Shown piece by piece: positions 20,132 to 20,656 of a stretch of 37,500 nt of DNA (position 1 is its first letter; every line of letters begins with the position of its first letter). The notes beneath the pieces were generated by a model. That model was not told where the DNA came from. It worked only from the letters and a program-made list of their open reading frames with translations, and ran no database searches. Made by a program: the position numbers and the translations under genes. Source of the stretch: a virus. Taxonomy: Duplodnaviria; Heunggongvirae; Uroviricota; Caudoviricetes. Location: IMG/VR virus record IMGVR_UViG_2713896799_000009, positions 1 to 37,500 of that record, one strand, 5' to 3'.

Positions 20132-20353
20132 ATGTACTCCAATGAAGAAGCCACCGACATAGCCTCCTCCATTCATAGTGAAACTATTTTCATCTACCCA
20201 GTAATGAATTCTTTGTAGAGTTGTGATCAATACAACTCACTAATGGAGAGGCTTGTCCAACACGTTGGACAAGTTTCCTGTTTGATTTACTGGACACTAT
20301 AGAAGGACAGAATGCCTTCATCACTCGAATAACATCAATTAAGGAGGTTCAAC

Positions 20354-20479
20354 ATGTTTCATTCCACAAATCATCAGGCTGTAATTATGGCTGCATCAGC
20401 TTGTGCCACAGACCTTTTCCGCTTCACTTTGAGCCTGATTCATTTCTACCTGACCGGCTCGCCTCTATCTTTTTAATCC
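20354..20479 (+). CDS. Small ORF (41 aa) with a strong Shine-Dalgarno, upstream of bor
   Basis: AAGGAGG six nucleotides before the ATG; product MFHSTNHQAVIMAASACATDLFRFTLSLIHFYLTGSPLSF; no homologue recognised. Confidence 0.3.
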
Positions 20480-20656
20480 CCGCTTTATCCAAATTGCATT
20501 GCCAGAATGCCGACAACAGACTGACATTCAAATCCTGACTACCTCCGATAGGCTGAGCATCCACCTATATAGTTTTAATTTTCATCAATCCATTTAACTA
20601 TCGTTTAATTGTTGTCACATAGGATTCTGCCGTTTTTAACAATGCAGGATAATAAG

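Follow-up and report, generated by a model that had tools for sequence, protein, structure and literature searches.

A conserved micro-gene preceded by T7- and SP6/K1-5-type promoter-like sequences in a lambda-like prophage

Between the HNH endonuclease gene and bor, a lambda-like prophage carries a short cassette in which a 40-codon gene with a strong ribosome-binding site stands downstream of two sequences resembling promoters of virulent phages with single-subunit RNA polymerases. Judged by its pattern of substitution, the open reading frame (ORF) is a real conserved gene, with purifying selection at the protein level on the C-terminal half of its product. We favour, with moderate confidence, the reading that this is a functional micro-gene cassette transcribed by the polymerase of a foreign phage.

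Results

Locus and mosaic origin of the cassette

The window, that is the whole stretch of DNA analysed (37,500 nucleotides of IMG/VR record IMGVR_UViG_2713896799_000009), belongs to a lambda-like prophage whose late operon lies on the - strand according to the list of ORFs, with which the annotation of the near-identical phage vB_EcoS-640R1 agrees. Within the late operon, the HNH endonuclease gene opens the HNH-terS-terL packaging block. The genes and segments around the interval are as follows.

17395-19152, - strand: large terminase, late operon
19152-19634, - strand: small terminase, late operon
19781-20131, - strand: HNH endonuclease, an ORF that the SfIV and vB_EcoS-640R1 annotations call HNH or homing endonuclease
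20424-20543, - strand: 3'-end remnant of an SfIV-type o-spanin (Rz1) gene, overlapped in antisense by the micro-gene
20542-20656, + strand: bor upstream region, of lambda origin, outside the cassette
20658-20951, + strand: bor, opposite to the late operon
20982-21458, - strand: Rz/Rz1, complete and of lambda type, late operon
21440-21973, - strand: lysozyme, late operon
22392-22607, - strand: holin, late operon

The 525 bases between HNH and bor are a three-part mosaic. From 20132 to about 20423 the sequence is ~84-85% identical to the Rz1-HNH spacer of Shigella phage SfIV. The second part corresponds to the last 40 codons of the SfIV o-spanin gene, as indicated by alignment and by the SfIV annotation, the SfIV Rz1 translation having the lipobox LLTGC; because the window has its own lambda-type Rz/Rz1, this stretch is considered a remnant. 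The third part is 99% identical to the sequence upstream of bor in lambda and 434. Right-hand recombination junctions differ (~20515 and ~20543), and each spares both the o-spanin remnant and the micro-gene. The remnant can also be read as a 46-codon ORF with a GTG start (20424-20564, - strand), a decayed C-terminal end.

An earlier reading of the sequence alone had found no other assignment in this interval. RefSeq indeed annotates nothing under it in any listed genome, and one GenBank record calls the micro-gene ORF a hypothetical protein, but the spanin remnant and the lambda-derived bor upstream region are both assignable. That reading also missed the two single-subunit RNA polymerase promoter sequences that flank the palindrome and are aimed at the ORF. 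Three GenBank records (ON470600, ON470607 and ON470621) give the micro-gene region the name 'protein of unknown function DUF4347', a label that looks spurious, the peptide having no Pfam match. A search of 19500-21100 against Rfam gave nothing near threshold.

Promoter-like sequences of two virulent phage groups

The cassette lies on the + strand, opposed to the late operon, and its ORF ends within the antisense of the spanin remnant. Its elements, in order, are given below.

20228-20250, + strand: P1, T7-group (Studiervirinae) promoter-like sequence CAATACAACTCACTAATGGAGAG, predicted +1 the G at 20245
20252-20261 and 20264-20273, + strand: arms of the inverted repeat, CTTGTCCAAC and GTTGGACAAG, 100% complementary, 2-nt spacer
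20285-20307, + strand: P2, SP6/K1-5-type (Molineuxvirinae) promoter ATTTACTGGACACTATAGAAGGA, predicted +1 the G at 20302
20302-20319, + strand: 5' stem-loop GAAGG-ACAGAATG-CCTTC, at the predicted start of the P2 transcript
20341-20347, + strand: Shine-Dalgarno sequence AAGGAGG, 6 nt before the ATG
20354-20476, + strand: micro-gene of 40 codons plus stop, MFHSTNHQAVIMAASACATDLFRFTLSLIHFYLTGSPLSF, ATG at 20354 and TAA at 20474-20476

The repeat, the short ORF and its strong ribosome-binding site had been described by the sequence-only reading. The ribosome-binding site was placed correctly; the repeat exists with its perfect 10-bp arms and 2-nt spacer but one base further on (20252-20273, not 20251-20272), and the ORF starts at the ATG described but ends three bases earlier, at 20476 rather than 20479.

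The lead to P2 came from a sensitive search of phage genomes, which matched 20255-20305 to an intergenic region of the SP6-group Klebsiella phage KpnP_VR702; a shorter query matched SP6, K1-5, K1E and ~140 relatives, several times per genome, as repeated promoters would give. Positions 20285-20305 (ATTTACTGGACACTATAGAAG) are identical at 21 of 21 bases to the K1-5 promoters at 12589, 14599, 22861 and 39274, and P2 fits the Molineuxvirinae consensus (~21-23 bp, ATTTA-NNN-GACACTATAGAAG, +1 G). The site occurs once in the window, where no chance match is expected even with three mismatches, and it scores 36.2 bits on a K1-5 PWM, against 29-37 for natural promoters and 14.7 for the next-best site in the window. 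By sequence, P2 is of the kind read only by single-subunit phage RNA polymerases. The unit formed by the hairpin and P2 aligns to the gp19/gp20 region of SP6 and to the gp17/gp18 region of K1-5. The cassette of SfIV also carries an SP6-type promoter, its copy of P2 (ATTTAGGTGACACTTTAGAAG) being the SP6 consensus with one change. The P2 score stays within the natural range in about 81 of 93 copies, and about one fifth of the copies are altered at promoter positions that are invariant in lytic phages (-5 G, -3 T or -2 C).

P1, located 57 nt upstream of P2 on the same strand, is the best site in the window on a PWM built from 17 T7 promoters (22.4 bits, the next best reaching 4.5), a score that nevertheless falls below the weakest real T7 promoter (natural range 26.0-39.2 bits, consensus TAATACGACTCACTATAGGGAGA). 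Other copies of P1 reach 26.2-29.8 bits. The SfIV copy contains AATACGACTCACTA, identical to T7 positions -16 to -3, and matches annotated T7 promoters, and the window copy matches promoters of several Studiervirinae phages. Like T7 class II/III promoters, P1 contains AATAC(A/G)ACTCACTA at T7 positions -16 to -3, and unlike them it has AT at -2/-1 rather than TA or AA; the A at -11 is found in phiOL, and starts in CAAT- are found in phi1.1A and phi4c.

At the predicted start of the P2 transcript, the 5' stem-loop pairs 20302-20306 with 20315-20319. Its variants keep the pairs through G-U, and relatives have other stems at the same place, such as GAAGAGG/CCTCTTC. Within the whole spacer, variation is lowest in the leader and the ribosome-binding site, and the Shine-Dalgarno sequence and ATG are invariant in 52 of 52 distinct copies.

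A palindrome maintained as a hairpin

A repeat with 10-bp arms at such spacing is expected by chance ~0.04 times per 37.5 kb according to our own arithmetic, and the 16-nt core of the palindrome has a single occurrence in the window. G-U pairs extend the stem to 13 bp (20248-20277), and the + strand RNA fold of the hairpin has an energy of -20.1 kcal/mol (z = -3.7). Among 93 related prophage loci the hairpin exists as two alleles, CCAAC/GTTGG and CTCAC/GTGAG, which are exactly those of virulent phages; a more distant family member has a further compensated version, TTGTCCAGCAGTGCTGGACAA. The palindrome, like the ORF, goes far beyond chance: in related loci its pairing is kept through compensatory changes, with 97% of cells paired and an observed covariation score that 0 of 500 shuffles attain. 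The arms change in concert and the flanks of the stem co-vary, hence selection acts on the hairpin, which points to a palindrome kept as a hairpin rather than mainly as the protein-binding site proposed at first. G-U intermediates are present on both strands of this main hairpin and thus do not discriminate the strand of action.

The window palindrome (gcttGTCCAACACGTTGGACaag), 11 nt upstream of P2, fits the pattern ttGTCYMAC-NN-GTKRGACaa with complementary flanks. Nine copies of this pattern are found in SP6 and eight in K1-5, mostly intergenic and several of them directly upstream of promoters, and their flanks co-vary in a way that lengthens the stem. Identical copies of the same palindrome also occur upstream of promoters in Klebsiella Molineuxvirinae phages. 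The palindrome of the window is, from this sequence comparison, a copy of the SP6-like intercistronic palindrome. In the virulent phages themselves the 16-nt palindrome GTCYMAC-NN-GTKRGAC is spread over 493-30584 of SP6 and 559-31030 of K1-5 as 9 and 8 repeats, one SP6 copy lying within the primase/helicase gene and another within the nucleotide kinase gene.

A pattern scan reported a terminator-like site on the + strand, with a 13-pair stem and the tail CTGTTTGATT, in which the run of U is interrupted. The hairpin with its T-rich tail (20274-20289) thus looks like a terminator on that strand, as far as the pattern goes.

Two further readings of this part were set aside. A second hairpin at 20219-20239 was considered as a structure of the late mRNA; the evidence for it is weak, a single compensated pair whose G-U intermediates are on the - strand. 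This hairpin and P1 overlap, P1 position -11 being one of the two positions that change. A repressor operator was also considered; the site has a single copy in the window and by eye is unlike LexA, CRP and lambdoid operators.

The micro-gene is conserved at the protein level

Conservation of the ORF, a check proposed by the sequence-only reading, is found in related prophages: each of the 93 related loci whose upstream sequence is complete (52 distinct sequences) carries it intact, and so do more distant family members, which were found through protein similarity and are for that reason biased towards conservation. The peptide varies in its N-terminal half and is conserved in its C-terminal half. 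In codons 21-41 the 52 distinct copies have 8 variable sites, and all 8 changes are synonymous in the frame of the ORF. The Klebsiella version differs at 5 positions, of which 2 also belong to the E. coli set; these differences are synonymous too, which gives 11 distinct changes in the C-terminal half, 11 of 11 synonymous in the ORF frame. In the overlapping antisense spanin frame 10 of the 11 are non-synonymous, several of them radical (S to L, G to D, A to E). The loci were collected by a 20-mer; the 8 sites lie outside it and the 3 further Klebsiella differences inside it. For the 8 of 8 synonymous changes outside the 20-mer, P is ~2e-5, or 1.5e-3 if only transitions are considered. Mosaic recombination complicates site-wise conservation of this kind. 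Conservation of the C-terminal half was initially attributed to the antisense spanin gene, a reading that the analysis of codon positions overturned.

In the first 19 codons pN exceeds pS (0.33 against 0.11), and by this measure the N-terminal part of the peptide is free of protein constraint. A diversity-generating mechanism was considered for this variable part and rejected, the changes being mostly ordinary transitions and the repeat partner not being found.

Protein searches returned solely 'hypothetical' proteins of 37-40 residues, all ending in LSLxHxYLTGxPLxF; such relatives occur in Shigella, Klebsiella and other prophages. For three family members, neither Pfam nor PADLOC gave a match. 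In the protein search the peptide was found in temperate phages only and was absent from Autographiviridae genomes. The structure model is one helix spanning residues 2-34 (mean pLDDT 83); the Klebsiella version has a clear hydrophobic stretch, the E. coli version less so. The proposal of a small membrane peptide or leader therefore holds in part: the coding sequence is real, one long helix is modelled and a small, possibly membrane-located peptide is tenable on the model, whereas a leader of bor is disfavoured, the cassette occurring without bor in SfIV-type phages.

The first codons of the Klebsiella version resemble the start of SP6 gp20 and K1-5 gp18 (MLKIS..TIVN against MFKIETIVN), and for this reason the gene may have begun as a recombination fusion. 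The start of the E. coli ORF was also considered as a homologue of SP6 gp20 and K1-5 gp18; this is not evident, the likeness being found in the Klebsiella version only. Neither the peptide nor the palindrome nor the K1-5 promoter string turned up in the papers searched.

Distribution and recurring architecture

The cassette is present in 632 of 5426 complete E. coli genomes, in 1-3 copies each. The spacer is accessory: it was found in only 2 of 80 IMG/VR loci with an HNH protein at least 89% identical, and in the others HNH follows other genes directly. Among species-representative genomes the ORF-tail pattern had no match, and the SP6-type promoter pattern had 21 matches against ~17 expected by chance (own calculation), in unrelated taxa only.

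In Klebsiella, a 38-codon version of the gene is preceded by a series of similar elements.

Klebsiella cassette, start: a palindrome, then a promoter slot
Klebsiella promoter slot: either a K11/KP32-type sequence, AATTAGGGCCCACTATAGAGA, or a T7-like sequence, ATTAAGACTCACTATTGGGAAGG, as alternatives in the same slot
Klebsiella cassette, next: the palindrome GTCCAACACGTTGGAC, then AATAGTGGCGAGTATAGAAC, the promoter type of a Klebsiella Molineuxvirinae genus, followed by a strong ribosome-binding site

The sequence AATTAGGGCCCACTATAGAGA has 92-96% identity to sites in ~140 Klebsiella podophages. Two more distant members have a palindrome, one or two ..GGCGNGTATAGA.. promoters (TATAG-type) and a 5' stem-loop at the predicted start. 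A ribosome-binding site and the ORF follow, together with a spanin-like remnant, and the distant cassettes always sit between the lysis cassette and the packaging genes. Across the sequences compared, the architecture is conserved and the promoter types match the phages that infect each host.

Some smaller features were seen in these relatives. The further palindrome at the start of the Klebsiella cassettes, before the first promoter-like site, is TTGTCTCTTATAAGAGACAA (2785-2812 of locus L185 and 2773-2810 of locus L184). Two distant cassette-bearing prophages have ~120 bases in common before the palindrome (2720-2860 of L212 and 2680-2800 of L214, ..GCAGCCCCTnACTnCGTGCCGGATGCTC..). In one IMG/VR copy (L154) an insertion sequence with two transposase-like ORFs lies between the cassette and bor, at the equivalent of ~20630-21900 of the window. 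A consistent + strand cargo gene was not found downstream of the cassette; some Klebsiella prophages encode there, at the position of bor in the window, an acidic cysteine-rich protein of 125 residues (L184, 3510-3887, + strand).

Search for host-type promoters and phage polymerase genes

A simple scan of 19600-21100 on both strands returned no sigma-70 promoter, though 2.8 were expected by chance, and the candidates picked by eye are all weak. The window contains no gene for a single-subunit RNA polymerase, its 823-residue ORF being an exonuclease-domain protein.

Discussion

Phages of the T7, SP6 and K1-5 types make their own RNA polymerase in the infected cell, at the moment when such phages shut off host transcription, as is established for T7. 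In the lysogen, the micro-gene would be silent, its promoters being of a kind that the cell's own polymerase should not read, since a gene for a single-subunit RNA polymerase is missing from the prophage and the scan gave no sigma-70 promoter. Superinfection by a phage of the T7, SP6 or K1-5 type would supply the polymerase for transcription of the micro-gene, and the strong ribosome-binding site would then yield a burst of the single-helix peptide. In the most speculative step, the peptide would harm the infected cell or the invader, and the cassette would constitute a natural phage-triggered defence. A defence role of the peptide, taken alone, is possible but doubtful. Equally tentative is the wider proposal that prophages of E. 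coli, Shigella and Klebsiella carry an infection sensor, an array of T7-, SP6/K1-5- and KP32-type promoters driving an effector peptide of 37-40 residues that would be made only after the entry of a virulent phage and the shut-off of host transcription, and that would hamper or abort the infection. Several points speak against the favoured reading of a cassette transcribed by a foreign phage polymerase: the score of P1 in the window, the altered promoter positions in about one fifth of the copies, the unconstrained N-terminal part, the Klebsiella ORF start that resembles gp20 and gp18, the lack of a Pfam or PADLOC match, and the competition that one promoter on the chromosome would meet from the hundreds on phage DNA.

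Among the explanations considered, a peptide that harms or protects is ranked first, followed by a recombination scar, then by expression from the host polymerase and finally by mimicry of an origin. The scar would be neutral, a fragment of a T7-supergroup phage caught between lysis and packaging genes and kept by linkage, with the ORF an accidental fusion into the antisense of the spanin gene. We consider it unlikely, and it owes its second place to the resemblance of the Klebsiella ORF start to SP6 gp20 and to the alteration of core promoter positions in about one fifth of the copies. The homology of the hairpin and P2 to one specific SP6/K1-5 intergenic region, the likeness to gp18/gp20, the unconstrained N-terminal half, the mutated promoters (~20% of copies) and the lack of a consistent cargo gene downstream all suit it, and host-matched promoter types would also be expected, as only co-infecting phages can recombine. 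What a scar does not account for is that codons 21-40 change only synonymously in the frame of the ORF and not in that of the spanin, that the ribosome-binding site and ATG are invariant, and that the ORF is intact in each of the 93 related copies with full upstream sequence (52 distinct) and in distant members. Moreover, there are several right-hand junctions, every one sparing the ORF, and the retained parts are promoters and palindromes alone, always in one orientation and without other coding debris of the phage.

In another explanation, the micro-gene is functional but expressed by the host polymerase, as a moron or as a type I-like toxin checked by antisense late transcription, the phage-type promoters being incidental. 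In its favour are the small size, helical model and partly hydrophobic nature of the peptide, the antisense overlap of the gene with the late operon, and the position between Rz and the packaging genes, a classic moron site where bor also resides. Yet not one of the 2.8 sigma-70-type promoters expected by chance was found in 19600-21100, the terminator-like hairpin lies upstream of the gene and not downstream, and phage-type promoters precede every family member despite their differing sequences; we hold this explanation to be improbable. Far less credible still is a decoy, in which the palindrome-plus-promoter units would mimic a T7-type origin and lead the polymerase or replisome of the invader to act on prophage DNA, as piracy or as interference. 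T7 uses tandem phage promoters as its primary replication origin. In SP6 and K1-5, two palindrome-plus-promoter units come immediately behind the RNA polymerase gene, the place of phi1.1A and phi1.1B and of the primary origin in T7; tandem promoters are present in the prophage cassettes too, but a decoy leaves the unvarying ribosome-binding site and ATG and the selection on the encoded protein unexplained. Just as remote is the combination of an operator for a dimeric DNA-binding protein with a leader peptide regulating bor, a notion suggested by a repeat perfect over 10 bp, 80 bp upstream of the ORF, and by bor coming next on the same strand. The window has no second copy of the site, the arms change together while the stem flanks co-vary, SfIV-type phages have the cassette without bor, and bor comes with its own lambda-derived upstream region.

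The preferred reading, a micro-gene cassette transcribed by an invading phage's polymerase, has partial counterparts in known systems. As in the SP6/K1-5 promoters of the Autographiviridae (Molineuxvirinae), P2 has a palindrome upstream at similar spacing, and a stem-loop at +1 is followed by a strong ribosome-binding site; unlike them, this predicted promoter lies in a temperate lambda-like prophage devoid of a single-subunit polymerase, opposed to the late operon. Like the lambdoid morons bor and lom, the cassette is an accessory insert, found in some relatives only, that separates late genes where Rz meets the packaging genes and is oriented opposite to them. It differs from them in having no host-type promoter that could be found, a terminator-like hairpin that lies upstream, and promoters that the cell alone would be unable to read; neither a sigma-70-type promoter nor a terminator-like site between the ORF and bor was detected. 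With type I toxins such as Hok, TisB and Ldr, the micro-gene shares a single helix of ~40 residues, a strong ribosome-binding site and an antisense overlap, and the peptide is helical and moderately hydrophobic. Unlike for these toxins, neither a dedicated antisense sRNA nor a promoter of its own could be found, searches for an Rfam match, a promoter on either strand and a family match being negative, and the E. coli version has charged residues in the middle of the helix. Known anti-phage defence systems, as covered by PADLOC and Pfam for three family members, gave no match.

In the triggered-suicide defence engineered in Lactococcus, a phage-inducible promoter drives a lethal gene, and satellites and virophages carry promoters of their helper. 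By analogy, the cassette would be a resident element with promoters readable only by the machinery of an incoming virus. Those systems are engineered or are parasites of a helper, whereas the present cassette resides in an unrelated temperate phage and has a peptide of 40 residues as its payload.

If the proposal is true, a resident element could keep a gene fully silent and still have it expressed after host shut-off, through the polymerase of the invader. It would also add an unannotated conserved micro-gene to ~12% of complete E. coli genomes and to Klebsiella prophages. Phages of the K1-5/K1E, SP6, T7-like and KP32-like types are favoured candidates for therapy, and lysogens with matching promoters might respond to them. 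Furthermore, scans of bacterial genomes for T7-supergroup promoter motifs could reveal other phage-triggered modules.

Additional observations around the cassette

Between the convergent bor and Rz genes lies an inverted repeat, GAGTTGCCCAT/ATGGGCAGCTC (20957-20982), which is probably a terminator shared by both. The cassette region was also considered as a cos site and rejected, the SfIV genome end being located past HNH (PMC3851460), ~470 bp away according to the annotation. The linear genome of SfIV ends ~58 bp after HNH, and the 146-bp gap between the HNH and small terminase genes of the window (19635-19780) probably holds the cos site.
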